Source: Bacilli bacterium (GTDB lineage Bacteria > Bacillota_I > Bacilli_A > RF39 > UBA660). From it: 56,793 bases of DNA. Both the position numbers and the translations under genes were made by a program. The stretch lies in contig JAQXQC010000055.1 of NCBI GenBank assembly GCA_029100965.1, positions 1 through 56,793 of the forward strand, read 5' to 3'. Below the pieces are notes generated by a model. It was not told the origin of the DNA. It made no database searches and worked only from the letters and a program-made list of their open reading frames with translations. The number at the start of each line of letters is the position of its first letter. Position 1 is the stretch's first letter. Of this stretch, positions 8,640 through 38,037 are shown piece by piece.

Positions 8640-10415
8640 TTGGGTGGTAATATGGAAAAAATATTTTATATAATATCTGTTATTTTTCTTATTTTCTCTT
8701 ACTTATTGTTTTTTAAATCAAAGAAGAAGTTAAGTGTTATAAGAGAATTTATTTATTCTATTTGTTTATTTTATTGTTATAATGTTTTAGTTGTTCATGT
8801 TGTTTATTTATTCAAACAAACAGGAACTTTCTTTTTATATGGTAGTATTAATATTATTATTTCTATTATTTTAGGTATAATAACTTTAATAACAAAGAGA
8901 AAACAACAATATTATTTTAAAAAAAGAGAATTTCTTTTCTTTGGTTTATTTTTTGTATTATTTATGTTACTTGGTTATTTAAGGTTTCATGGGGGGAGAT
9001 TAATTCATTATGAATCTGTAGATGCTTCTATTCATTATAGATATGCTCTTCATTTTTCAGAAACACTTTCTACTTTGACAAAAGAAAATAGTAAAGATTT
9101 GGTATATGGTAATTTTGAAAGAGGAATGTCTATTTCTTATGTAAATGGAGGCTTTTTAATTAGAATTCTTTCTTTTATTAAATCTTATCGTGTATTTTTA
9201 CTTCATGATACGATTAGTTTTGCTATTACGGGATTAATCTTTTTAAGTACTTTATTTCAACTGTTTAAGAAAAGAAATTACTTTTATTATGCTTCTCTTA
9301 TGTTTCTTTATAGTTTTTCTTTTTTATTGAATAGTTATAGCTTTGGTTTTAGTTATTTAACTTTAGGAATGATGGTGGTCAATTTATTATTTCTAACTGT
9401 ACTTTCTTATGAAAAAGAATGGGAAGAAAATGTTTGGTTTAAAATACTGATTTTGTTTATTCTTTCGTTTTCAGTCTTCTTTTCTTATTATTTATTTGTT
9501 CCTTGTATTTATCTTGCTTTAGGTATTTATTATATAAAACTTTATCAGGATAAAGAGATAAGTTTTAAACAAATGAGTTTCTATGGGATTTTTACTTTAA
9601 TTCTTCCTTTCTTTATTGGTTTTTTCTATTTTGTTTTTCCAACATTCTTTAAAGTAAAAGGGGGAGTTGCAACGGCTATTGCATTAGATGGATATATTTA
9701 TAATAATAAGACGCCTTCTTACTTTTTTGCTTTCTTTTTCTTTTATTTAGTGTATTTTGAAAGAAAGTTTCAAAAGGAAAATACTTATTTGGTTCTTAAC
9801 TTTTATTTTATTTCTTTTTATATTGTTCTCTTTTTTATTTTATTTGTTTTTCATTTATCAGGAGAATATTATTTTCATAAATTATTTTATTTATATTCTA
9901 TTTTTGTTATTTTATATTTTGGAATAAAGTTAGAAAATAAGAAGAAATATGTCTATCTTTTCACTTTTCTTACTTTAGGTAGTATGCTTTTGATTAGGGT
10001 GATGGATGATAATAAATTGACTAATTTATTATCTAAATTAAATGTATATAATTGGAATAGTTACAGTTTTAATCAAAATAGAACTTTAATTGATGAAGAT
10101 GAACTTCTTTTGATTGAAGAGAGTACTAAATATAAAGATGTTTGTAGTTATCATCATGAGTTTATTAATGCTGGAAAGAAACTTAGAAATTATTTGTTTT
10201 ATGCGATTACTAATGAAATTCCTTTAGCTGGCTATCGTAAAGATAATAAGGATGGATTAAATCAAGAAAATATTTCTTTTCATTGGTGGAGAAATTTAGA
10301 AGATTATCCTTGTATTGTTTATTTTTATGATGATAAAGTGATAGATAGTAGTATTTATCAATATCAAATTTTGTATCAAAATGAGGGCGGCGCTATTTTA
10401 AAGAAGGTTAATTAA
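8640..10415 (+). CDS. Polytopic membrane protein with a C-terminal soluble domain, possible GT-C-type glycosyltransferase
   Basis: Many TM helices followed by a soluble tail of about 150 aa. The function is inferred from context only. An alternative start is the ATG at 8652. Confidence 0.4.
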   Translation: MGGNMEKIFYIISVIFLIFSYLLFFKSKKKLSVIREFIYSICLFYCYNVLVVHVVYLFKQTGTFFLYGSINIIISIILGIITLITKRKQQYYFKKREFLFFGLFFVLFMLLGYLRFHGGRLIHYESVDASIHYRYALHFSETLSTLTKENSKDLVYGNFERGMSISYVNGGFLIRILSFIKSYRVFLLHDTISFAITGLIFLSTLFQLFKKRNYFYYASLMFLYSFSFLLNSYSFGFSYLTLGMMVVNLLFLTVLSYEKEWEENVWFKILILFILSFSVFFSYYLFVPCIYLALGIYYIKLYQDKEISFKQMSFYGIFTLILPFFIGFFYFVFPTFFKVKGGVATAIALDGYIYNNKTPSYFFAFFFFYLVYFERKFQKENTYLVLNFYFISFYIVLFFILFVFHLSGEYYFHKLFYLYSIFVILYFGIKLENKKKYVYLFTFLTLGSMLLIRVMDDNKLTNLLSKLNVYNWNSYSFNQNRTLIDEDELLLIEESTKYKDVCSYHHEFINAGKKLRNYLFYAITNEIPLAGYRKDNKDGLNQENISFHWWRNLEDYPCIVYFYDDKVIDSSIYQYQILYQNEGGAILKKVN

Positions 10416-11362: not shown

Positions 11363-12505
11363 ATGAAAAATATTTTTATTTTAGGCTCACGTGGTTATCA
11401 AGCAAAGTATGGTGGTTGGGAGACTTTTGTTACCAATTTAGTGGATCATTATCATGATAAAAATACAACTATTTATGTGGGAGAATTAACTGATAAAAAG
11501 GAAGAAGATAAAACATTAAGAAAGATAAATGATCATTTATTTATTTATTCTTTTTATGTTAATACGAGTGGTAGTGCTAAGATGTTTTTTTATACAATAA
11601 AGTCTTATTTAAGTACTTTAAATTATATTAAAAAAAATCAATTGTTTGATTCCTATGTTTATATTCTTGGATTGAAGTTAGGTCCTTTATTAGCGTTCCA
11701 TCAACATTTTAGAAAGAAATATCGAATTAAGATTTATGTTAATCCAGATGGTTTAGAGCATCTAAGAAGTAAATGGAATAGACTTATTCAGTGGTGTTTT
11801 TTATTATCAGAATGGTCGATGATTAGGCATGCTGACTTAGTAGTTTGTGATGGACTTGGAATTGAAAGATATATTCAAAAGAAATATAAAAAGGCAAAAA
11901 CTACTTATATTGCTTATGGGACTAATCTTTATGATTTTTCTAAGATTGATGAGGAGAAGATATTAAAAGAGTATCATTTGAAGAAGGATGATTATCTTTT
12001 GATGGTAGGTAGATGTGTTCCTGAAAATAATTATGAATTAGTTATTAAAGATTTTATGAAGAGTAAGATAAAGAAAAAATTAGTCATTATTACAAATTTG
12101 AGTAGTAGTCATTATTATTTGGAATTAGTAGAGAAAACTTCTTTAGAGAAAGATAAGAGAATTATTTTTATTGATGGGGTATATGATCAAGTAAAGCTGG
12201 CTACGATTCGAAAGAATGCTTATTTATCTATTCATGGACATTCTGTTGGGGGAACTAATCCTAGTTTAATAGAAGCTTTGTCTTTAACTGATTTAAATTT
12301 ATTATATGATGTTTGTTTTAATCATGATATTGGGTTAGATACTGCTTTATATTTTAAAGAAGAAGGAAGTTTAAAAAAGTTATTAGATAATACTAAATTA
12401 TTAGATCAAAAAAGAGAAGAGCTTGGACCTAAAGCTAAGAAAAGAATACAAGAAAACTTTACTTGGGATAAGATTGTAGAAGAATATAAGGATATTATGA
12501 AATAG
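11363..12505 (+). CDS. GT4-family glycosyltransferase with a DUF1972-type N-terminus (rhamnosyltransferase-like, WchF/Cps2T type)
   Basis: The N-terminus ILGSRGYQAKYGGWETFV is characteristic of DUF1972. The C-terminus is GT1/GT4-like (GHSVGGTNPSLIEAL). Confidence 0.7.
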   Translation: MKNIFILGSRGYQAKYGGWETFVTNLVDHYHDKNTTIYVGELTDKKEEDKTLRKINDHLFIYSFYVNTSGSAKMFFYTIKSYLSTLNYIKKNQLFDSYVYILGLKLGPLLAFHQHFRKKYRIKIYVNPDGLEHLRSKWNRLIQWCFLLSEWSMIRHADLVVCDGLGIERYIQKKYKKAKTTYIAYGTNLYDFSKIDEEKILKEYHLKKDDYLLMVGRCVPENNYELVIKDFMKSKIKKKLVIITNLSSSHYYLELVEKTSLEKDKRIIFIDGVYDQVKLATIRKNAYLSIHGHSVGGTNPSLIEALSLTDLNLLYDVCFNHDIGLDTALYFKEEGSLKKLLDNTKLLDQKREELGPKAKKRIQENFTWDKIVEEYKDIMK

Positions 12506-26516: not shown

Positions 26517-27503
26517 ATGGTAAAAAAAATTTATAATTTATTATTTAAAAGAAAAAATTATAAATTTATTATTGGAATATTTCTAGGAATATTTTTTTCT
26601 ATAGTAGGAGTATATGCTGCTAGTAAATATACTTCTAAGAGTGTATATTATAATAATGAAAATAGTAGTTTATCTAGTGATGATGTACAGGGAGCTATTG
26701 ATGAGTTATCAGAGAAAGCAAAGAATCTTTCTAGTAGTGGATGTCCATCTGGTTATGCTTGTTTAGAGAAAAAAACTACTTTAGCGTTAGGAGATTATGT
26801 TAAGATGACACCAACTAAATCTTCTTATACAACAGATAAATCTAAAACAGGATATACAAGTACACAAACCATTAAACCTCAAGAATTAAATTTATGGCGA
26901 GTGATTAAAATTAATAGTGATGGAACAGTAGAGATGATTAGTGAACATGTATCTAGTACAGCAATATACTTTGGAGGAAAAACAGGGTACTTAAATTTAG
27001 TAGGCTATTTAAATGTACTTGCTAGTCAGTATGAAAATAGTACTTACACAAAAGGTTCTAGACATTTTGGTTATAATGGACAAACAGAATATATTACTGA
27101 TACAACAAAATTTGTTAATCCTGCACCATGGACTAGTTCAACTGGAAGTAGTACAGTAGAAAGGCAAGGAGGAGGAGATACTTTATATACTACAGACTAT
27201 AATTTAGTTTATACAGTGTTAGGAACTAGAGTGGCGACCAAACCAGGAAGCGCCGCTGGTTCATATTATTGGATGGCCTCACGTTACTATGGCTATTCGT
27301 CATCTACTAGCTATTACTGGCGCGGTCGTAGCGTGAGCACCTCGGGGTCGAATAGCAACTACAGCTTGTATCGCTATTACAGTTCAAGTTTCAACGCGGA
27401 CTACAATAGTAATTCCTTTCGCCCAATAGTGGTTCTGAAGTCAGGCCTCAAATACTATGGAGTCGGGACAGAGGATTATCCAATGGAAATATCAGTAAGT
27501 TAG
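26517..27503 (+). CDS. DGR variable protein 1: N-terminally anchored or secreted protein with a C-terminal variable region (probable C-type-lectin-like fold)
   Basis: An N-terminal hydrophobic anchor (FIIGIFLGIFFSIVGVYAA). The C-terminal 47 codons (VR1) align with the TR and differ from it at adenines. It is a paralogue of the 29571 and 36649 genes. Confidence 0.85.
   Translation: MVKKIYNLLFKRKNYKFIIGIFLGIFFSIVGVYAASKYTSKSVYYNNENSSLSSDDVQGAIDELSEKAKNLSSSGCPSGYACLEKKTTLALGDYVKMTPTKSSYTTDKSKTGYTSTQTIKPQELNLWRVIKINSDGTVEMISEHVSSTAIYFGGKTGYLNLVGYLNVLASQYENSTYTKGSRHFGYNGQTEYITDTTKFVNPAPWTSSTGSSTVERQGGGDTLYTTDYNLVYTVLGTRVATKPGSAAGSYYWMASRYYGYSSSTSYYWRGRSVSTSGSNSNYSLYRYYSSSFNADYNSNSFRPIVVLKSGLKYYGVGTEDYPMEISVS
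27285..27425 (+). repeat. DGR variable repeat VR1
   Basis: A 141-nt ungapped match to TR 28352-28492. I count 20 mismatches, 17 of them at TR adenines, and all 15 mismatches from codon 6 onward are at adenines. Confidence 0.9.
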
Positions 27504-27514
27504 GAAGTGTAGAA

Positions 27515-27547
27515 CCTCGGAGGACAGCCTAAGGGTGTTCACCGAGG
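27515..27547 (+). other. Conserved GC-rich hairpin just after the target-1 stop codon (copy 1 of 2)
   Basis: The fold is cctcgg-a-ggaca-g-cc-taa-gg-g-tgttc-a-ccgagg. A near-identical copy follows target 2. Confidence 0.6.
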
Positions 27548-27575: not shown

Positions 27576-27998
27576 GTGGCAGTCATTCATATGGTGAATA
27601 ATTTGAAAGAATTATTTCCTGATTATGTTTTATTATTAAAAATTGGTACTTTTTATGAGTGTTATTGTGATGATGCTAATATTGTTTCTTATTTATTTTC
27701 TTACAAAAGAAAAACTCTATCTAGTGGGGATAAGGTATGTGGATTTCCTCTTGTTTCTTATCATAAGGTAATCTCTAATTTAGAGAATAGAAATATTAAT
27801 TATATTTCTATTGATAAAACACATAATTATGAAGAAATAGATAAGGTTAATTATAAGAAAAAGAATCAATATCATGTGATTTTGGATAAAGCAAATTATT
27901 ATATCAATAATTTAGAGAGAATTGATAAGATTAAAAATTTTCTTTTAAAAGATAATTCTAAAATAGATGAGATAGAGAGATTGTTATATGAAAGATAA
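27576..27998 (+). CDS. Standalone MutS-domain-I-like protein (DGR accessory ORF, MSL-type)
   Basis: LKELFPDYVLLLKIGTFYECYCDDANIVS...CGFPLVSYHKVISNLENRNINYISID parallels the E. coli MutS N-terminus ([21 protein letters not shown]...[16 protein letters not shown]). This includes the F-x-E mismatch-contact motif (FYE, nt 27651-27659). The start is GTG with an AAGAAGG RBS. Confidence 0.7.
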   Translation: MAVIHMVNNLKELFPDYVLLLKIGTFYECYCDDANIVSYLFSYKRKTLSSGDKVCGFPLVSYHKVISNLENRNINYISIDKTHNYEEIDKVNYKKKNQYHVILDKANYYINNLERIDKIKNFLLKDNSKIDEIERLLYER

Positions 27999-28332
27999 AT
28001 TTTATGTTACTCGTTTAATTAAAGAATTAATTCATAGTTTTCATCAATATTTAACCAATTTTCCTCATAAGGAAATTGAGATAAAAAGAGAGATTATGTC
28101 TACTTCTTATCAAATGTTAAAAATTGCTTATGAAGCAAATACAACTTTTGATTTGAAAAAAAGAGTAGATATTCAAGATAAGATAATTTCTTATATTAAA
28201 TATTTGGATTATTTGGTTAATGTTTGCTATGATAAGCAAATTATTAATTCAAAGAGATATTTGAAATTTGGTGAGAATTTAGATTATTTATTAAAATATG
28301 TAATTGGATGGCGAAAGTCATCTAGGGCTTAG
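27988..28332 (+). CDS. avd: DGR accessory variability determinant (Avd, four-helix-bundle protein)
   Basis: A 114-aa, helical, basic protein located immediately upstream of the TR. The FP-HKE..IKREI...YEAN...KR....I...I..L..L pattern is typical of the Avd / 23S-IVS four-helix-bundle family. Confidence 0.75.
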   Translation: MKDKFYVTRLIKELIHSFHQYLTNFPHKEIEIKREIMSTSYQMLKIAYEANTTFDLKKRVDIQDKIISYIKYLDYLVNVCYDKQIINSKRYLKFGENLDYLLKYVIGWRKSSRA

Positions 28333-28351
28333 TTGTTTGGATAAGGAGGGG

Positions 28352-28492
28352 AATTATGACCATTCTTCATCTACTAACTATAACTGGAACGGTCGTAACG
28401 TGAACACCTCGGGGACGAATAGCAACAACAACTTGTATAACTATAACAGTTCAAGTTTCAACACGAACAACAATAGTAATTCCTTTCGCCCA
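28352..28492 (+). repeat. DGR template repeat (TR)
   Basis: A non-coding segment between avd and the RT. Read in the VR frame it gives NYDHSSSTNYNWNGRNVNTSGTNSNNNLYNYNSSSFNTNNNSNSFRP, with 17 AAY codons out of 47. It matches VR1, VR2 and VR3. Confidence 0.9.
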
Positions 28493-28627
28493 GTAACTTC
28501 TTCAAACTGTGGTAATATAAGTATTCTTATATTAGAGATAATGAAGAAATAGACTAAGTCCAATAGATTTATTCTATAAACAATAATTTAAAATATATCT
28601 GTTAGTAATTTAGGTGAAAGGGGATAT

Positions 28628-29574
28628 ATGAAAAGGAAAAATAATTTATATTCAAATGTATATAAATTTGATCATATAGAGAAGTGTTTTGATGAGATTT
28701 GTAGAAATACAAAGAATAAAAATAAAGTAAGTCAATTTAAAGAATTTAAGGCAATATATATTAGCCGAGTTTATCATGAATTAAAAAATAAAACTTATCA
28801 AGTAGGAAGTTTTCATGTATTTTATCTTTATGATCTAAAAAGAGAAGGATAGTTAGTCAAAATATGTATGATAAGTTAGTGAATCATTTGGTTAGTAGGT
28901 ATATTTTATATGATGCTTTAATTCCTTGTTTGATTGATTCTAATTGTGCATCAAGACCAAATAAGGGAGTAAGTTATGCTTTAAAGTTATATTATCAATA
29001 TCGAAGAGTATTGGATAAAAAATATTCTTATTATTATATTTTAAAATGTGATATTAAGTCTTATTTTGCTAGTATTGATATTGAAATATTAAAGAATAAA
29101 TTAAGAAAAAAGATTAAAGATAAAGATGCTTTAACTATTATTTATCAGATATTAGATAGTGATACTACTCTTAGTATAGGATTTATGACTAGTCAAATAT
29201 TAGGAATATTTTATTTAAATGATTTAGATCATTATATAAAAGAAGAATTAAAAATAAAATATTATGTTAGATATCAAGATGATTTTTTATTATTACATTG
29301 GGATAAACAATATTTAAAATATTGTTTAGATAAGATAAAAGAGTTTTTAAAAAGAGGGAAATTAGAATTGAATGAGAAGACTAGAATTTATAAAAATACA
29401 AATAATATTATTTTTCTTGGGAGAAATAAATATAATAGAAGTTCTAAATATAGAAAACAATTTAGAAAATTAAAACATAAGAAGTATTTATATGATGTAG
29501 GAAAAATTCAATTAAACAGTTATTTAGCTAGTTATATTAATTATAGAAATATTAATGGAGGTTTGAGAAAATGA
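28628..29574 (+). CDS. DGR-type reverse transcriptase, interrupted by a -1 frameshift at an A5 run (28837-28841)
   Basis: RT motifs are present: KCDIKSYFASID, the IGFMTSQ DGR-specific (I/L/V)GxxxSQ signature, YVRYQDDFLLL (YxDD), and FLG. ORFs 28628-28852 and 28864-29574 join as ...FYLYDLK/KRRIVSQNMYDK if one A is added. Confidence 0.85.
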
Positions 29575-30521
29575 AAAAAAGTAAGGGTTATAATTATAAA
29601 TTATTAATGGGAGTGATTTTAGGAATACTTTTATCTGTGGTTGGTGTAAGGGCTGTTAGTTATCTTGGAAGTGGTTCAGAATTAGTTTACGATAATAGTA
29701 GTAGTGGACTTTCCTCTGTTAATGTTCAAAATGCTTTAGATGAAGTTTATAGTAAAATTTGTCCTGATAACTATGTATGTTTCAAGAAGAAAAGTACTTT
29801 AGCATTAGGAGATTATGTTCAGATGACACCAACTAAATCTTCTTATACAACAGATACTTCTAAAACAGGATATACAAGTACGCAAACTATTAATCCTCAA
29901 GAATTAAATCTATGGAGGGTGATTAAAATTAATGATGATGGAACGGTAGAGATGATTAGTGAGCATGTCTCTAGTACAGCGGTATATTTTCAAGGACAAA
30001 CAGGATATCAAAATTTAGTAGGCTATTTAAATGTTCTTGCTAGTCAGTATGAGAATAGTACTTATACGAAAGGTTCTAGATATTTTGGTTATAATGGACA
30101 AACAGAATATATTACGGATACATCAAAATTTGTTAATCCTGCACCATGGACTAGTTCAACCGGAAGTAGTACAGTAGAAAGTCAAGGAGGAGGAGATACT
30201 TTATATGCAACAGATTATAATTTAGTTAATACAGTGTTAGCGACTAAAGTGGCAACTAAACCTAACAGTGCATCTGGTTCAGATTATTGGATGGCTTCTC
30301 GTGACTATTATTATTCTTCATCTACTAGCTATGGCTGGTACGGTCGTAGTGTGGACGCCTCGGGGGCGAATAACATCATCTATTTGTATCGCTATAGCAG
30401 TTCAAGTTTCAGCACGGACAACGATAGTAATTCCCTTCGCCCAATAGTGGTTCTGAAGTCAGGACTCAAATACTATGGAGTTGGGACAGAAGACTATCCA
30501 ATGGAAATATCAGTAAGTTAG
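29571..30521 (+). CDS. DGR variable protein 2 (paralogue of target 1)
   Basis: Its ATG overlaps the RT stop codon (ATGA). It has an N-terminal anchor, a scaffold that by eye is about 90% nt-identical to target 1, and a C-terminal VR2. Confidence 0.85.
   Translation: MKKSKGYNYKLLMGVILGILLSVVGVRAVSYLGSGSELVYDNSSSGLSSVNVQNALDEVYSKICPDNYVCFKKKSTLALGDYVQMTPTKSSYTTDTSKTGYTSTQTINPQELNLWRVIKINDDGTVEMISEHVSSTAVYFQGQTGYQNLVGYLNVLASQYENSTYTKGSRYFGYNGQTEYITDTSKFVNPAPWTSSTGSSTVESQGGGDTLYATDYNLVNTVLATKVATKPNSASGSDYWMASRDYYYSSSTSYGWYGRSVDASGANNIIYLYRYSSSSFSTDNDSNSLRPIVVLKSGLKYYGVGTEDYPMEISVS
30303..30443 (+). repeat. DGR variable repeat VR2
   Basis: A 141-nt ungapped match to the TR. I count 26 mismatches, 18 of them at TR adenines. 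Confidence 0.85.
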
Positions 30522-32168: not shown

Positions 32169-32873
32169 TTGGTGGTTAGTATGGAACAAGAGAATATTCA
32201 AAAATTTATTAAGAAATTGCGAAAGGAAAAGAATTTAACACAAAAGCAATTAGCAGATATGTTAGGAGTAACTTATCAAGCTGTTAGCAAATGGGAAAGA
32301 GGTTTAAATATTCCTGATATTAGTATTTTAAAAGAAATTAGTCATATTTTTGATGTTGATATGGATACTATGATTACAGGAGTAGAAAAAAAACATAAAA
32401 AATATATTCCTAAATTTTATTTCTTTCTTATTTTTCTTCTTATTTTTCTTCTTTTGTTCTTTATTTTTTTATATTTTAGTAATCATAATTTTTATTTAAA
32501 GAAAGTTTCTAGTGGTTGTGATGATTTTATTGTAAATGGTAGTTTTGCTTATAATAAAGAAAAGTCTTCTCTTTATATTTCTAATATTGATTATTGTGGG
32601 GAAGAAAATAAAACAATTTATCAAGAAATTTCTTGGGAATTGTATGAGGAATATCAAAATAATAAAAGAAAGATTAGAGATGGTTCTTTATCAAAAAATA
32701 TTTCTTTAAATGATTATTTAAAGAAGTTAGAAATTCATATTGATGATTATTCTAGTAGTTGTAAAAAGATTTCTTCTTCTCAAGTGTATTTAGAAATTAA
32801 AGTTAAAGATAAAGAAGGAAAAGTAGAACTCTATCAGGTTCCTATTCAGTTGGAAAGTGATTGTGAACAATGA
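32169..32873 (+). CDS. XRE-family HTH protein with a transmembrane segment
   Basis: An HTH (LTQKQLADMLGVTYQAVSKWERG) is followed by a TM helix and an extracytoplasmic domain. An alternative start is the ATG at 32181. Confidence 0.75.
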   Translation: MVVSMEQENIQKFIKKLRKEKNLTQKQLADMLGVTYQAVSKWERGLNIPDISILKEISHIFDVDMDTMITGVEKKHKKYIPKFYFFLIFLLIFLLLFFIFLYFSNHNFYLKKVSSGCDDFIVNGSFAYNKEKSSLYISNIDYCGEENKTIYQEISWELYEEYQNNKRKIRDGSLSKNISLNDYLKKLEIHIDDYSSSCKKISSSQVYLEIKVKDKEGKVELYQVPIQLESDCEQ

Positions 32874-32971
32874 GTTCTTTTTTTTATTCAACTTGAAGTT
32901 TAGTATATTCAACTTTTTATTTATTGATTCTTTGCTTATTCTTTTTTATACTTTTGTTATGGAGGTAGAAA

Positions 32972-33395
32972 ATGAATTTGAAGAAATGGATAATGCTATT
33001 TATTTTTGTTGGGGGAATATTAATGATTAGTGGTTGTCGTAAGGTAGAGGAAAGTGATATATCGAAATTTAAAAAAGAATATGAGAGTATTAATGGGAGT
33101 AAAATAGAAGGAAAAAAATCACGTGAAGTTAAAATTAATTCTAAATCTTCTATTGCTTATACTTCTGTTCATGAGATTAACTCAAAGATGGAGAAAAAAG
33201 AGAATTTATGTACCTAGTATTGTTGCTATTGTTGATGGAAAGGCTGTTAATTTGACGGATGGTATTAGCGATAAGCAAACGGATGCTTATATGGAACTTA
33301 GTGATGAAATAAAGAAAGATAGTTATCAAAAGATTAAATGTACAATAGAGTGTGTTGCTAATACACAAAAGATATGTAAACCTAAAAAGTGTTAA
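32972..33395 (+). pseudogene. Degenerate thioredoxin-like lipoprotein remnant, split across two frames
   Basis: A lipobox (LMISGC) and an FKKEYESINGSK leader sit in frame 1. The C-terminal RIYVPSIVAIVDGKAV...DKQTD segment is in frame +1. The junction is at an A6 run near 33193-33198. The expected CxxC core appears to be missing. Confidence 0.4.
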
Positions 33396-33495
33396 TATTT
33401 AATTGATGATTGCAAAAAATGTTGATATTTTTAAAAAATTTGCATTCTATTGCAAAAATAAAACAAATGTGATATACTCTAATTGGTGATGAATT

Positions 33496-34683
33496 GTGAT
33501 AGAGAGAAATGACTATTTAGATGAGTTAAAAAAATGGAAAGACAAGGATTTAATTAAAGTAATAACCGGAATAAGAAGGTGTGGTAAATCAACTTTATTT
33601 GAATTATATATAAATTATTTAAGGAAAATAGGAATTCCAGATGATCATATTATTTCATTAAATCTTGAGTCTCCTGATTATCAATTTAAAGATTACAAAG
33701 ACCTTTATGATTATGTTAATGAAAAGATAAAAGATAATGATATGTATTATGTTTTTTTAGATGAGGTTCAAGTGGTTGAACAATTTGAAAAAGCAGTGGA
33801 TGGATTATATATTAAAAAGAATGTTGATGAATATATTACAGGGTCAAATGCTTATTTATTATCTGGGGAACTTGCTACATTTTTGGCTGGTAGATACATT
33901 GAATTAAAAGTTTTTCCTTTATCGTTTAAGGAATATGCAAATTATTTTCAACAAGATGGAGATGAAAGATTACATTTAAAATATGTGAATAATAGCTCTA
34001 TGCCTTATGCTTTAAAACTTGATGATCAAGATGAGATTGATAAGTATTTAGATGCTATTTATAATACAATAATTGTAAAAGATATTGTAACTAGGAGAAA
34101 AATTTCGGATACTAGTGTATTAAAAAGTTTATCTGAATTTATGTTTTCTAGTATAGGAAATGTGTTGTCGGTTAAAAAAATAGCAGATACTTTAACTTCT
34201 AATGGGAGAAATATTTCTGTTCATACAGTAGAAACTTATTTAGATTCTTTAGTTGAAAGTTTTATTTTTAATAAAGTTTCTAGATATGATATTAAAGGAA
34301 AACAGTATTTACAAACAGGAGAAAAATATTATGCTACTGATGTTACAATGCGGTATGCTTTGCTTGGAAGAAAGTATATTGATTTAGGGCATATTCTTGA
34401 AAATGTTGTTTACTTGGAACTTTTGAGAAGAGGATATAAGGTTTATATTGGGAAAGTTGGAGATAAGGAAATTGATTTTATTGCAGAAAATAGTGTTGGA
34501 ATAACTTATTATCAAGTTGCTTATACTGTAAGGGATAAAGATACATTGGAAAGAGAATTATCTGTACTTGATAATATTAATGATCATTATCCTAAGTTTA
34601 TTTTGACAATGGATGTTGATCCAGAGATTGATTTTAATGGGATAAGAAAAATTAATGTTTTAGATTGGTTATTAGAAAAGTAA
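33496..34683 (+). CDS. AAA-type ATPase with a DUF4143-like C-terminal domain
   Basis: Walker A (GIRRCGKST) and Walker B (YVFLDEVQ) motifs, about 395 aa. The start codon is GTG. Confidence 0.7.
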   Translation: MIERNDYLDELKKWKDKDLIKVITGIRRCGKSTLFELYINYLRKIGIPDDHIISLNLESPDYQFKDYKDLYDYVNEKIKDNDMYYVFLDEVQVVEQFEKAVDGLYIKKNVDEYITGSNAYLLSGELATFLAGRYIELKVFPLSFKEYANYFQQDGDERLHLKYVNNSSMPYALKLDDQDEIDKYLDAIYNTIIVKDIVTRRKISDTSVLKSLSEFMFSSIGNVLSVKKIADTLTSNGRNISVHTVETYLDSLVESFIFNKVSRYDIKGKQYLQTGEKYYATDVTMRYALLGRKYIDLGHILENVVYLELLRRGYKVYIGKVGDKEIDFIAENSVGITYYQVAYTVRDKDTLERELSVLDNINDHYPKFILTMDVDPEIDFNGIRKINVLDWLLEK

Positions 34684-35505: not shown

Positions 35506-36639
35506 ATGGAAAATATTTTAGAAGATCAAAGAATGATTTTATATCGTGGCTTTTTTAGTGGAGTGGATTATGAAGTTAGGGTAGATAAGAAGAGTGGAGT
35601 TGGGACAATTATTGTTCCTAGTGGTATTTTAAGTCATCCTAATTATAAAAGTCTTTATTTAAATTGTTATCGTAGGACACTTACTAATTTAACAACTTTA
35701 AAGAATATTGCTGTTTCTTTAGAACCAACAAATGAGTTAGAAAAAGAAAGATGTAAGGAATTAATGAAAACGTTACCATTAGATAGTGAGGTAGAGATTG
35801 TTTCAAAGAATAAGAAAGAAGTTAATATTGAGAACTATTTGAAAGCTAATATGATTACTAAGAATGATAATGGAAAAATGGTTACTTATTTTAAAAGAAA
35901 TGCTTCTCAAAATCAGAATGAATATGTTTTAGAGAATGTAAGTTATTTTGCTTTAGAAGAGGAATTGGAAAAATTATTTAGTGATGGAAGGATGAATTTT
36001 GAGGATAAATCTGTAGAAGAAATTGCAAATATGGTATTAGATCGTGTTAGTAATAATAAAAAACAATATTATTTTGAAAGTAAGCAACAACATGTTGCTA
36101 AAGATGATTATGAGAAGGCTAGTATGAATGCTACAAATCAAGATGATAAAGTAAATACAGAAATAGGAATTATTCAAAAAGATCCTAGTGAGAGAGTAAA
36201 TAATACTTATCAGGCTGTAGAAAGAGATAAAGGGCATTATACACTTGCTCATTCTAGTGTTAGTGAGGTAGAGTCTCAAAAAATAGAGGGACAGTCAGAA
36301 AGTGAACAATCTATTACAGAAGTAGAGAGTAGAGAAGAAGAAAAAGTATATTATATTGACTTAGTTACACAAGATATTTATGATGAAGAATACCAAAAAA
36401 TTGGTAATATGAAAGAAGGGTATCAAATTAATTTTGATAATAACCATTTAATGAAAAATGGAAAAGAAATTGGTAGTATAGGAGATTTTTCTTCTTTAGA
36501 AAATCAAATATCTAATCATAAAAATAATGTTAGGACATTAAAGAAGGATAATGAAGGAATTGTTGACTTTCAAACTTTCTTCTTGTTAATATTTATTATG
36601 AGTGTATTGATGGGAAGTTTATATTTCTTTTGCAGATAG
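35506..36639 (+). CDS. Hypothetical protein with a C-terminal TM anchor, immediately upstream of DGR target 3
   Basis: An ORF with no recognised motif. A 9-nt gap separates it from the next gene. Confidence 0.45.
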   Translation: MENILEDQRMILYRGFFSGVDYEVRVDKKSGVGTIIVPSGILSHPNYKSLYLNCYRRTLTNLTTLKNIAVSLEPTNELEKERCKELMKTLPLDSEVEIVSKNKKEVNIENYLKANMITKNDNGKMVTYFKRNASQNQNEYVLENVSYFALEEELEKLFSDGRMNFEDKSVEEIANMVLDRVSNNKKQYYFESKQQHVAKDDYEKASMNATNQDDKVNTEIGIIQKDPSERVNNTYQAVERDKGHYTLAHSSVSEVESQKIEGQSESEQSITEVESREEEKVYYIDLVTQDIYDEEYQKIGNMKEGYQINFDNNHLMKNGKEIGSIGDFSSLENQISNHKNNVRTLKKDNEGIVDFQTFFLLIFIMSVLMGSLYFFCR

Positions 36640-36648
36640 GAGGAAGAG

Positions 36649-38037
36649 ATGGACTCTAAAAAAAGATTAATTATTACTAGTGTTATATCTATTATTCTTG
36701 TATCTATTTTATTTATTGGGAGTACTTATTCCATTTTTACTTCTACTGATGTTGATCAAGAATCTAATGTATATCAAACGGGAAATTTGTCAATTCAGTT
36801 TGAAAATACAAATAATGTTGCTTTAGAAATTACTAAGCCAATGTCGGATCAAAAAGCAGTTTCTTTGACTCCATATCATCTTACGGTTACCAATAATGGT
36901 ACAGTTGCGTATAAATTTAATATTGTACTTAATCCAACAACAGCAACAGATGAAATTAATCATCAATATATTATGACTAAAGTAGGACAATTGGATAGTA
37001 AAAAATTTAGTGATTGTACAAATAATATTATTAAAGAAGGAGTTATTTTGTTGCCTAAAACAAGTGTTGATATTGATGTTCGTGTTTGGTTATCTGATAC
37101 TGTTCAAAATACAGAGGTTAATAAGAGTTTTAGTGCAAAATTATCTATAGATGGAGTTGGGGCTTATAGTAAGCATACAGAGGTGGATAATAGTGCGTTA
37201 GCATCTAATGATAAATTAGCTAGTCGATTTAGTTATGATAATTCTAAGTCTAATTTTGATTGTTCTGATGTACAGTGTGCGATTGATACTTTAGATAAAG
37301 CATTAGGAGGTAGTGATTTATTTTTAGGGGCATATGTTTCCATGACACCTAAAAAATCTTCTTATACAACAGATACTTCTAAAACAGGATATACGAGTAG
37401 TCAAACAATTAATCCTCAAGAATTAAATCTATGGAGGGTAATTAAAATTAATAGTGATGGAACGGTAGAGATGATTAGTGAGCATGTATCTAGTACAGAT
37501 GTATACTTTCGAGGAAAAACAGGGTACTTAAATTTAGTAGGATATTTAAATGTACTTGCTAGTCAATACGAGAATAGTACTTATACAAAAGGGTCTAGAC
37601 ATTTTGGGTATAATGGACAAACAGAATATATTACCGATACTTCCAAATTTACTTCTAGTGCTCCATGGACTTGTGGTACTGGAGGAAGTTGTAATCCAGT
37701 AGAAAGTCAAGGAGGAGGAGATTGGTTATATACAACAGATTATAATTTAGTTAAAGCGACTGAAGTGGTAACTAAACCTAACAGTGCATCTGGTTCATCT
37801 TATTGGATGGCTTCTCGTGACTATAGCTATTCTTCATCTACTAGCTATGGCTGGTACGGTCATAGTGTGGACGCCTCGGGGGCGAATAACCTCAACCATT
37901 TGTATGACTATGTCGGTTCAAGTTTCAGCACGAGCAGCAATAGTAAGTCCCTTCGCCCAATAGTGACTTTGAAGTCTGGACTTAAATATACAGGATCTGG
38001 AACTGCTGATGATCCATTTAAACCATCTACAAAGTAG
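36649..38037 (+). CDS. DGR variable protein 3: SipW-type signal peptide plus a TasA/camelysin-like N-terminal module, fused to the shared scaffold and VR3
   Basis: The N-terminus ...LFIGSTYSIFTSTDVDQESNVYQTGNLSIQF resembles TasA/CalY-class signal peptides and their mature N-termini. The C-terminal half is paralogous to targets 1 and 2 and ends in VR3. Confidence 0.8.
   Translation: MDSKKRLIITSVISIILVSILFIGSTYSIFTSTDVDQESNVYQTGNLSIQFENTNNVALEITKPMSDQKAVSLTPYHLTVTNNGTVAYKFNIVLNPTTATDEINHQYIMTKVGQLDSKKFSDCTNNIIKEGVILLPKTSVDIDVRVWLSDTVQNTEVNKSFSAKLSIDGVGAYSKHTEVDNSALASNDKLASRFSYDNSKSNFDCSDVQCAIDTLDKALGGSDLFLGAYVSMTPKKSSYTTDTSKTGYTSSQTINPQELNLWRVIKINSDGTVEMISEHVSSTDVYFRGKTGYLNLVGYLNVLASQYENSTYTKGSRHFGYNGQTEYITDTSKFTSSAPWTCGTGGSCNPVESQGGGDWLYTTDYNLVKATEVVTKPNSASGSSYWMASRDYSYSSSTSYGWYGHSVDASGANNLNHLYDYVGSSFSTSSNSKSLRPIVTLKSGLKYTGSGTADDPFKPSTK
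37819..37959 (+). repeat. DGR variable repeat VR3 (remote from the cassette)
   Basis: A 141-nt ungapped match to the TR. I count about 29 mismatches, about 20 of them at TR adenines. Confidence 0.85.

Follow-up and report, generated by a model that had tools for sequence, protein, structure and literature searches.

The variable repeat (VR) VR1, which lies at the 3' end of a target gene in contig JAQXQC010000055.1 (the whole stretch of 56,793 nucleotides that was analysed, hereafter the window), is read here as a trace of mutagenic retrohoming carried out by a chromosomal diversity-generating retroelement (DGR) that has most likely been inactivated recently in this genome, a reading to which a probability of about 0.8 is given. 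The contig is part of a metagenome-assembled genome of uncultured gut Bacilli (locus tags PUD25_045xx; 27% G+C). To our knowledge, DGRs are the only natural system of targeted protein hypermutation in prokaryotes. On the + strand, the locus runs from target1 with VR1 through a MutS-like (MSL) gene, avd, the template repeat (TR), a spacer RNA and the reverse transcriptase (RT) gene to target2 with VR2, and target3 with VR3 follows 9 kb downstream. This layout, in which a non-coding TR stands between an Avd-like gene and an RT with the signature [I/V/L]GxxxSQ and the VRs occupy the 3' ends of three paralogous target genes, upholds the original prediction that the locus is a DGR. A scan of the whole window returned exactly four copies of the repeat, all on the + strand:

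27285-27425, + strand: VR1, the variable repeat in target1, with an adenine-only core at 27300-27425 and a first 15 nt of flanking homology
28352-28492, + strand: TR, the template repeat, with 51 A and 17 AAY codons, in non-coding DNA
30303-30443, + strand: VR2, in target2, with 26 mismatches against TR, 18 of them at A
37819-37959, + strand: VR3, in target3, with 29 mismatches against TR, 20 of them at A

The repeats were compared by a scripted, ungapped procedure, and enrichment at adenines was assessed with a hypergeometric test. The prediction had counted VR1 as departing from TR essentially only at TR adenines, and this count was reproduced in every particular. TR and VR1 are each 141 nt long with no indels, and 17 of their 20 mismatches fall at TR adenines (nine A>G, six A>T and two A>C), the three others (T3C, C10T and T15G) belonging to codons 1, 4 and 5. 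Beyond these, over nt 16-141, each of the 15 mismatches falls on an adenine and 80 of 80 non-A bases are identical; numerous non-A mismatches in the central and 3' part of VR1, which had been named as the outcome that would speak against the claim, are absent, with none after nt 15. The proposed test of adenine bias gave p = 1.9e-6 for the whole VR1 repeat and p = 5e-8 for nt 16-141. The described design of TR was likewise recovered, with its 51 adenines distributed 25/23/3 over codon positions 1/2/3 and AAY codons making up 17 of 47 (13 AAC and 4 AAT). Of the 17 codons changed in VR1, 16 are changed non-synonymously.

Adenine bias is common to all three VRs (17/20 mismatches in VR1, 18/26 in VR2 and 20/29 in VR3; p from 5e-8 to 1.6e-4), and a change in at least one VR is found at 30 of the 51 TR adenines, as against only six of the 80 non-A positions. 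As a control, the 557 nt of paralogy between target1 and target2 just upstream of the VRs were compared, where 26 of 71 mismatches fall on the 206 A (p = 0.58), so that the usual paralog divergence here is without adenine bias.

As predicted, homology between TR and the VRs stops precisely after ...TCCTTTCGCCCA, from which point TR continues with GTAACTTC and all three VRs with ATAGTG. The end of the repeat is A-free and GC-rich (TCCTTTCGCCC) and identical in TR and VR1, and the flanks diverge from the next base on. The claim that this junction corresponds to the directional marker of the Bordetella phage DGR, initiation of mutagenic homing (IMH) versus IMH*, stood in part: the flanks do differ right after the end of homology, whereas the likeness to the element of phage BPP-1 is an analogy and not a match, and neither a 14-bp GC block nor a 21-bp IMH of the BPP-1 kind is present at the repeat ends. 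Some DGRs are known with identical IMH and IMH*, in which recognition must reach downstream (Wu et al. 2018, PMC5758913). In all three target open reading frames (ORFs), the VR ends 26 codons before the stop. At the 5' end, T3C and C10T are common to all VRs, and since the first 15 nt of the repeat carry such common differences, the transferred part would be about 126 nt long (27300-27425), which fits the loosely defined 5' boundary known for DGRs (PMC5758913). In addition, an 82-aa ORF with a TTG start (28304-28552) crosses TR in the reading frame of the VRs; it is probably not a gene and is instead a by-product of the stop-free AAY design of TR.

Related loci display the same signature. Among 18 loci in which TR was located upstream of the conserved spacer and VRs were searched for, adenine-specific differences occur in many, with adenine/total mismatch counts of 23/23, 23/23, 18/19, 16/16, 15/15, 13/13 and 9/9. 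Orthologues of target1 in other metagenomes show 83-90% identity overall, most of the differences being in the VR, where 26 of 47 columns are variable, compared with 58 of 281 outside it. Within the VR, variation is found in 23 of the 31 codons whose first or second base is an adenine in TR, and in three of the 16 other codons. Judged from these sequences, the RT clade carries out adenine mutagenesis in nature and the target family is being diversified.

The steps of the proposed mechanism are borrowed from established DGR biology (Guo 2011, PMC3240598; Handa 2018, PMC6182149). A complex of RT and Avd would bind an RNA spanning the 3' end of avd, TR and the structured spacer. From the spacer, a cDNA would be primed and templated by TR, with random nucleotides inserted opposite adenines, and it would take the place of the matching VR at a target gene's 3' end, starting at TCCTTTCGCCC and reaching about 126 nt upstream. 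Some 30 codons of a surface-exposed beta-hairpin region would be recoded in this way, and no stop codons would be made, because the TR adenines lie in AAY codons. The targets would be three paralogous membrane-anchored or secreted proteins, with the MutS-domain-I protein as a conserved accessory.

The interrupted reverse transcriptase and the state of the element

The RT gene spans 28628-29574, and its part at 28840-29574 matches Pfam RVT_1 (E = 2e-13) and contains the motifs IGFMTSQ and YQDD, the first of which is invariant in the RT family alignment and conforms to the DGR RT signature [I/V/L]GxxxSQ (PMC7826257). The 2259 homologues of the RT, from gut and rumen metagenomes, are all intact and about 310-322 aa long. 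Identity to phage DGR RTs is about 30%, and the 103 tblastn matches include Bordetella phage records. In the window, the gene is divided by a frameshift, and the split RT is annotated by NCBI as two coding sequences of 74 aa and 236 aa:

28628-28852, + strand: N-terminal fragment of the RT gene, a 74-aa ORF (MDD5827028.1) that ends at TAG 28850-28852 through the frameshift
28832-28842, + strand: frameshift site, GATCTAAAAAG where intact relatives have GATCCTAAAAAG, one C being gone at 28835
28840-29574, + strand: remainder of the RT in the -1 frame, with an annotated 236-aa ORF from ATG 28864 (MDD5827029.1)

Where a 97%-identical intact relative (L002) reads GAT CCT AAA AAG, the window reads GAT CTA AAA AGA ... 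TAG. GATCCT has become GATCT at 28835, beside a run of five A (28837-28841), and a stop follows at codon 75. The deletion is real and not an assembly error, because it is seen both in an independent assembly and in a second strain. A Logan assembly of SRR21376897 is identical in sequence including the frameshift, and the same single-C deletion is found in L001, L091 and L092, of which L091 and L092 (from SRR22328033/34) are the second strain, 99.1-99.6% identical and distinguished by D69N and two TR differences. Slippage on the poly-A run was ruled out as the origin of the frameshift, since the missing base is the C of a CC pair. Re-initiation at ATG 28864 would yield a protein without KKRRIVSQ (motif 1), and a split RT of this kind is judged non-functional. 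An intact translatable RT gene, which present function would need, is not found in this genome. Because the RT ORF is interrupted by the 1-nt deletion, the repeat pattern shows past retrohoming and not present activity, and the VRs of the frameshifted element are most likely frozen now.

Among strains of the same species (about 94-96% nucleotide identity), three states of the core exist besides the RT frameshift. The core is fully intact in L094-L097. In L093 the RT is intact, and a 113-nt deletion between direct repeats of GAGAGATT (L093 9460-9475; window 27974-28086) has taken away the stop of MSL together with codons 1-33 of avd. One codon (nt 70-72) is also missing from the L093 TR. Lastly, in L089 and L090 the whole MSL-avd-TR-RT core (window 27636-29546) has been replaced by AT-rich filler of about 110-140 nt, which has no match among the sequences compared, and both flanking target genes have stayed intact:

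L089 11103-11241 and L090 11113-11234: filler in the core-less strains, with stubs of MSL (its first 60 nt) and RT (its last 28 nt)

The repeated independent loss of the core, with the targets staying open, argues for relaxed selection on it.

It is unlikely that the DGR is still active, whether through a leaky -1 slip on CUA-AAA-AG (28835-28842) or through an RT supplied in trans by a second DGR. By the first route, a full-length RT with only P70L would be made, and the frameshift would lower activity without abolishing it. A -1 shift on the run of five A would indeed restore ...YDLKKRRIVSQ..., matching the YDPKKRRIVSQ of relatives; moreover, the RT frame stays open throughout its downstream part, the two frameshift strains have no substitution between them across some 430 nt, and the frameshift allele persists in two diverged strains. 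However, all 2259 relatives are read in a single frame, which rules out programmed frameshifting as a property of the family, and CUAAAAAG is judged unfavourable for slippage. The Leu tRNA in the P site would be unable to re-pair after such a slip, and a run of five A is probably too short for transcriptional slippage. As for the second route, neither the 56.8-kb window nor the core-less strains yielded another RT. The loss of avd or of the whole core in other strains of the species also speaks against continued activity, as it suggests relaxed selection.

The order in which the repeats were rewritten bears on the same question. The VR1 core equals its own TR allele at each non-A base, whereas VR2 and VR3 share four non-A differences from TR (C48T, G71A, C81T and T133C) and so retain A71 and C133, both of which other strains have in their TR alleles. 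T133 is confined to the TR and VR1 of this genome, every other VR examined in the species having C133. Because VR1 carries the derived allele of its own TR, it was rewritten last, after VR2 and VR3.

Several observations weigh against recent inactivation or against the DGR reading at large. First, VR1 has T133 while the other frameshift strain has C133, and the simplest tree places the last homing after the frameshift, the most parsimonious order being the frameshift, then the TR mutation to T133, then homing into VR1; this argues for residual activity. The ordering is undermined by TR site 45, which groups L091 with L093 against the window and L094, in conflict with the frameshift tree, and by a clustering of differences in MSL. 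Of the 12 differences between the window and L091, seven lie at 27827-27929 in MSL, and an eighth MSL difference is at 27983; the patch at 27827-27929 is about 5% divergent, compared with about 0.3% in the next 1.2 kb, which suggests a recombination tract. With conflicting sites and signs of recombination, dating the last homing against the frameshift from TR alleles was abandoned as unsafe. Second, RT, TR, VR1 and VR2 do not differ among L006-L008, which are one related element from three samples. As the VRs are identical, no ongoing diversification is visible there, and this element looks static or old. Third, the frameshift and the VRs were judged from assembled sequences. Fourth, the avd-like protein, of canonical size and position, matches both of its families over the full length with scores under the curated cut-offs (Pfam bAvd, E = 2e-6, 28.5 bits vs cut-off 40; NCBIfam DivGenRetAVD, E = 9e-7, 29.2 bits vs cut-off 80). 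Finally, the structural model described below gave no assignment of the VR scaffold to the C-type lectin fold.

Two side observations concern the relatives. In L006-L008, 14 of the 31 differences between VR1 and TR are at non-A positions. In L003, an 82%-related syntenic element, VR1 and VR2 (8655-8795 and 11679-11819) agree at all 28 of their differences from TR, for which assembly collapse, gene conversion or the use of one cDNA twice are possible explanations.

That the repeats are ordinary diverged paralogs or products of DNA-level gene conversion, with an adenine pattern due to selection or composition, might be argued from the eight to nine non-A differences in each of VR2 and VR3 and the many in some relatives such as L006, but this is scarcely credible and is effectively refuted by the adenine statistics, since the 15/15 core mismatches of VR1 at A (p = 5e-8) adjoin unbiased paralogous sequence. 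TR, for its part, does not code, has its adenines concentrated at just those codons that vary, and stands between avd and an RT of the DGR type. Other members of the RT clade repeat this architecture with adenine-only mismatches, and several of the bases by which VR2 and VR3 depart from TR at non-A positions are those of TR alleles in other strains.

Accessory genes, spacer RNA and target proteins

The locus of this most likely inactivated element is an MSL/Avd-type cellular DGR of Architecture D, and the DGR type itself is already known. Apart from the repeats and the RT, its components are as follows:

26517-27503, + strand: target gene 1, 328 aa (MDD5827025.1, PUD25_04580), with an N-terminal hydrophobic anchor and a C-terminal 248-aa domain containing VR1
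27515-27547, + strand: hairpin after the target1 stop, CCTCGG-AGGAC-AGCC-UAA-GGGU-GUUCA-CCGAGG
27576-27998, + strand: MSL accessory gene, 140 aa, matching Pfam MutS_I and the NCBIfam MutS N-terminus
27988-28332, + strand: avd-like accessory gene, 114 aa, matching Pfam bAvd and NCBIfam DivGenRetAVD, both below curated cut-offs
28493-28630, + strand: structured spacer RNA of four to five helices, resembling Rfam RT-14
29571-30521, + strand: target gene 2, 316 aa (PUD25_04605), a paralogue of target1 with 76% amino-acid identity
30532-30567, + strand: hairpin after the target2 stop, a second copy, followed by a T-run
36649-38037, + strand: target gene 3, 462 aa, non-adjacent, with a C-terminal domain 64% identical to that of target1 and a SipW-type-like N-terminus

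The MSL match to Pfam MutS_I is above threshold (E = 3e-9; 37.4 bits > cut-off 20.6), and the gene is kept in L003, L094 and other loci. The flanking genes are housekeeping genes (Mur ligase, CinA, NAD kinase and HD phosphohydrolase), and since no phage genes are found around the locus, the element is taken to be cellular and chromosomal. A further ORF at 35506-36639 was ruled out as a target paralogue by comparison with the targets. At 32873-33496, only short overlapping ORFs are present where related strains carry a 232-aa PedC-like gene, and about 260 nt of L089 (14902-15161) are missing from the window in this region, which is probably a second decayed gene.

The spacer RNA between TR and RT is 135 nt long. 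A Rfam scan of the window at the gathering threshold gave no match; in a local search, 28497-28629 scored 32.4 bits against RF02921 (RT-14), for which the gathering score is 48.1 (E = 0.009), and the match spans the whole model (1-144) with the same helices. The spacer of L006 scored 33.9 bits, likewise below 48.1. In an alignment of 24 spacers from the RT clade, 93.4% of cells are paired and compensatory changes occur at 21 of 31 pairs, values reached by none of 500 shuffles; when the pairing partner was slid by 1-3 columns as a control, 39-61% were paired. Previously, the motif RT-10 was placed in the TR-RT spacer of BPP-1, and other RT motifs were speculated to serve DGRs (Weinberg et al. 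2017, PMC5737381). In Rfam, RT-14 is a motif class defined by closeness to RT genes, with no function assigned before, whereas the spacer here sits exactly where the cDNA-priming spacer of a DGR is expected. This suggests, from sequence and covariation, that the RT-14 motif represents a spacer RNA of DGRs. The spacer is probably, by analogy with BPP-1 (PMC6182149), the Avd-binding, cDNA-priming part of the DGR RNA.

Downstream of the VRs, the hairpin after the target1 stop folds at -20.1 kcal/mol (z = -3.5). In 13 targets from 11 loci, a hairpin stands at this position, 83-104 nt past the point where TR/VR homology ends; the apex (GCC-UNA-GG) is conserved, and the lower stems differ entirely in sequence yet stay paired. 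Across 11 hand-centred sequences, 84% of cells pair and compensatory changes are seen at 13 of 15 pairs, with none of 500 shuffles reaching these values, although the sequences were picked as best-folding segments, which inflates the percentage paired. Lacking a T-run in most copies, the hairpin does not qualify as a classical terminator. No such hairpin follows VR3, where target3 has an AT-rich terminator instead. A GC-rich inverted repeat is present downstream of the VR in about a third of DGRs. The hairpin or cruciform of BPP-1 has a GRNA tetraloop, and such elements lie 4-34 bp from the VR in phage DGRs (Guo 2011, PMC3240598). By analogy, the present hairpin is a candidate target-site element of variant form.

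The target proteins gave no match in Pfam, NCBIfam or PDB sequences, even at E < 10. Target1 has 787 homologues, and the C-terminal domain of about 240 aa is found in 3320 clusters (50% identity, E <= 1e-3) with many architectures. A prepilin-type N-terminal methylation motif is present in 14 of 75 diverse members of the domain family, and the SipW-type signal of target3 (TIGR04088) scored 15.6 bits, below the cut-off. From these N-termini, the target proteins are evidently exported or surface-located.

The domain of target1 (residues 81-328; 26757-27500) was modelled with AlphaFold2 from 102 sequences with high confidence (predicted local distance difference test, pLDDT, 96.5; predicted TM-score, pTM, 0.92), and in this model the VR would lie on a set of beta-hairpins (domain residues 177-223). 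A model of full-length target1 from a 41-sequence alignment (pLDDT 47) was discarded. Foldseek searches with the domain model gave nothing significant against PDB (best E = 3.2) or against BFVD, where the best hit was a gut siphovirus protein (E = 0.029, TM 0.38), and neither these searches nor sequence profiles placed the VR on a C-type lectin (or Ig-like) fold, though a divergent C-type lectin variant is conceivable. The pattern YW.AS ... W.GR.V..G ... (F/L)RP(I/V) is somewhat reminiscent of DUF1566-type lectin variants, and a hidden Markov model test of this was negative. It is a doubtful proposition, resting on the predicted model, that the VR scaffold is neither a C-type lectin nor an Ig fold but a large unannotated family of Firmicutes surface domains. 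Roux et al. in 2021 reportedly found VR domains to be systematically C-type lectin variants. If true, a non-lectin scaffold would give DGR hypervariation another structural basis, at odds with that report and with the current view.

Significance and comparison with known systems

None of these findings overturns the DGR paradigm, and the secondary observations, namely the core states, RT-14, the hairpin and the target fold, are of moderate specialist interest. In one gut species, the same DGR core is found intact, RT-frameshifted, avd-truncated or deleted, with the target genes open, and this series of states could be used to study when hypervariation is retained and when frozen. Comparative evidence links the orphan Rfam motif RT-14 to the spacer (priming) RNA of DGRs. 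DGRs are now being re-engineered for directed evolution, and a candidate target-site hairpin of a new shape would be useful for retargeting. Furthermore, the large unannotated family of target domains has a confident structure prediction and no known structural relative.

In comparison with the prototype BPP-1 (mtd-avd-TR-brt), the order avd-TR-spacer-RT is the same, TR adenines lie in AAY codons, and the VR is at the 3' end of the target gene. The A-free, GC-rich repeat end, the RT signature [I/V/L]GxxxSQ and a hairpin beyond the VR whose apex is conserved while its stem varies are also shared, as is a structured RNA between TR and RT (Rfam RT-10 in BPP-1, PMC5737381). Unlike the phage-borne element of BPP-1, the present one is chromosomal and cellular, has three targets rather than one, and includes an extra MutS-like gene. 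Its IMH-like end is identical in TR and VR; its hairpin stands 85-104 nt from the end of homology, against 4-34 bp in phage DGRs, and is capped by a UNA triloop, with GCC/GG as the closing bases, instead of a GRNA tetraloop; its target domain is not recognisably Mtd-like; and its RT is at most about 30% identical to phage DGR RTs and is frameshifted.

Architecture D comprises the MSL-containing DGRs, including that of Legionella pneumophila (Wu et al. 2018, PMC5758913). As in those elements, a small MutS-domain-I protein (140 aa here, 112-283 aa there) accompanies avd without HRDC (PMC5758913), and the element is chromosomal with surface-protein targets. In contrast to them, the host here is an uncultured low-GC gut Bacilli, the targets stand on both sides of the core with another 9 kb off, and they match neither DUF1566 nor FGE-sulfatase. 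With Treponema denticola and other multi-target DGRs, the locus shares the use of one TR for several paralogous targets, one of them non-adjacent, and counts of non-A differences that vary between targets. It differs from these systems in having MSL and Avd rather than HRDC, and its remote target is only 9.3 kb away.

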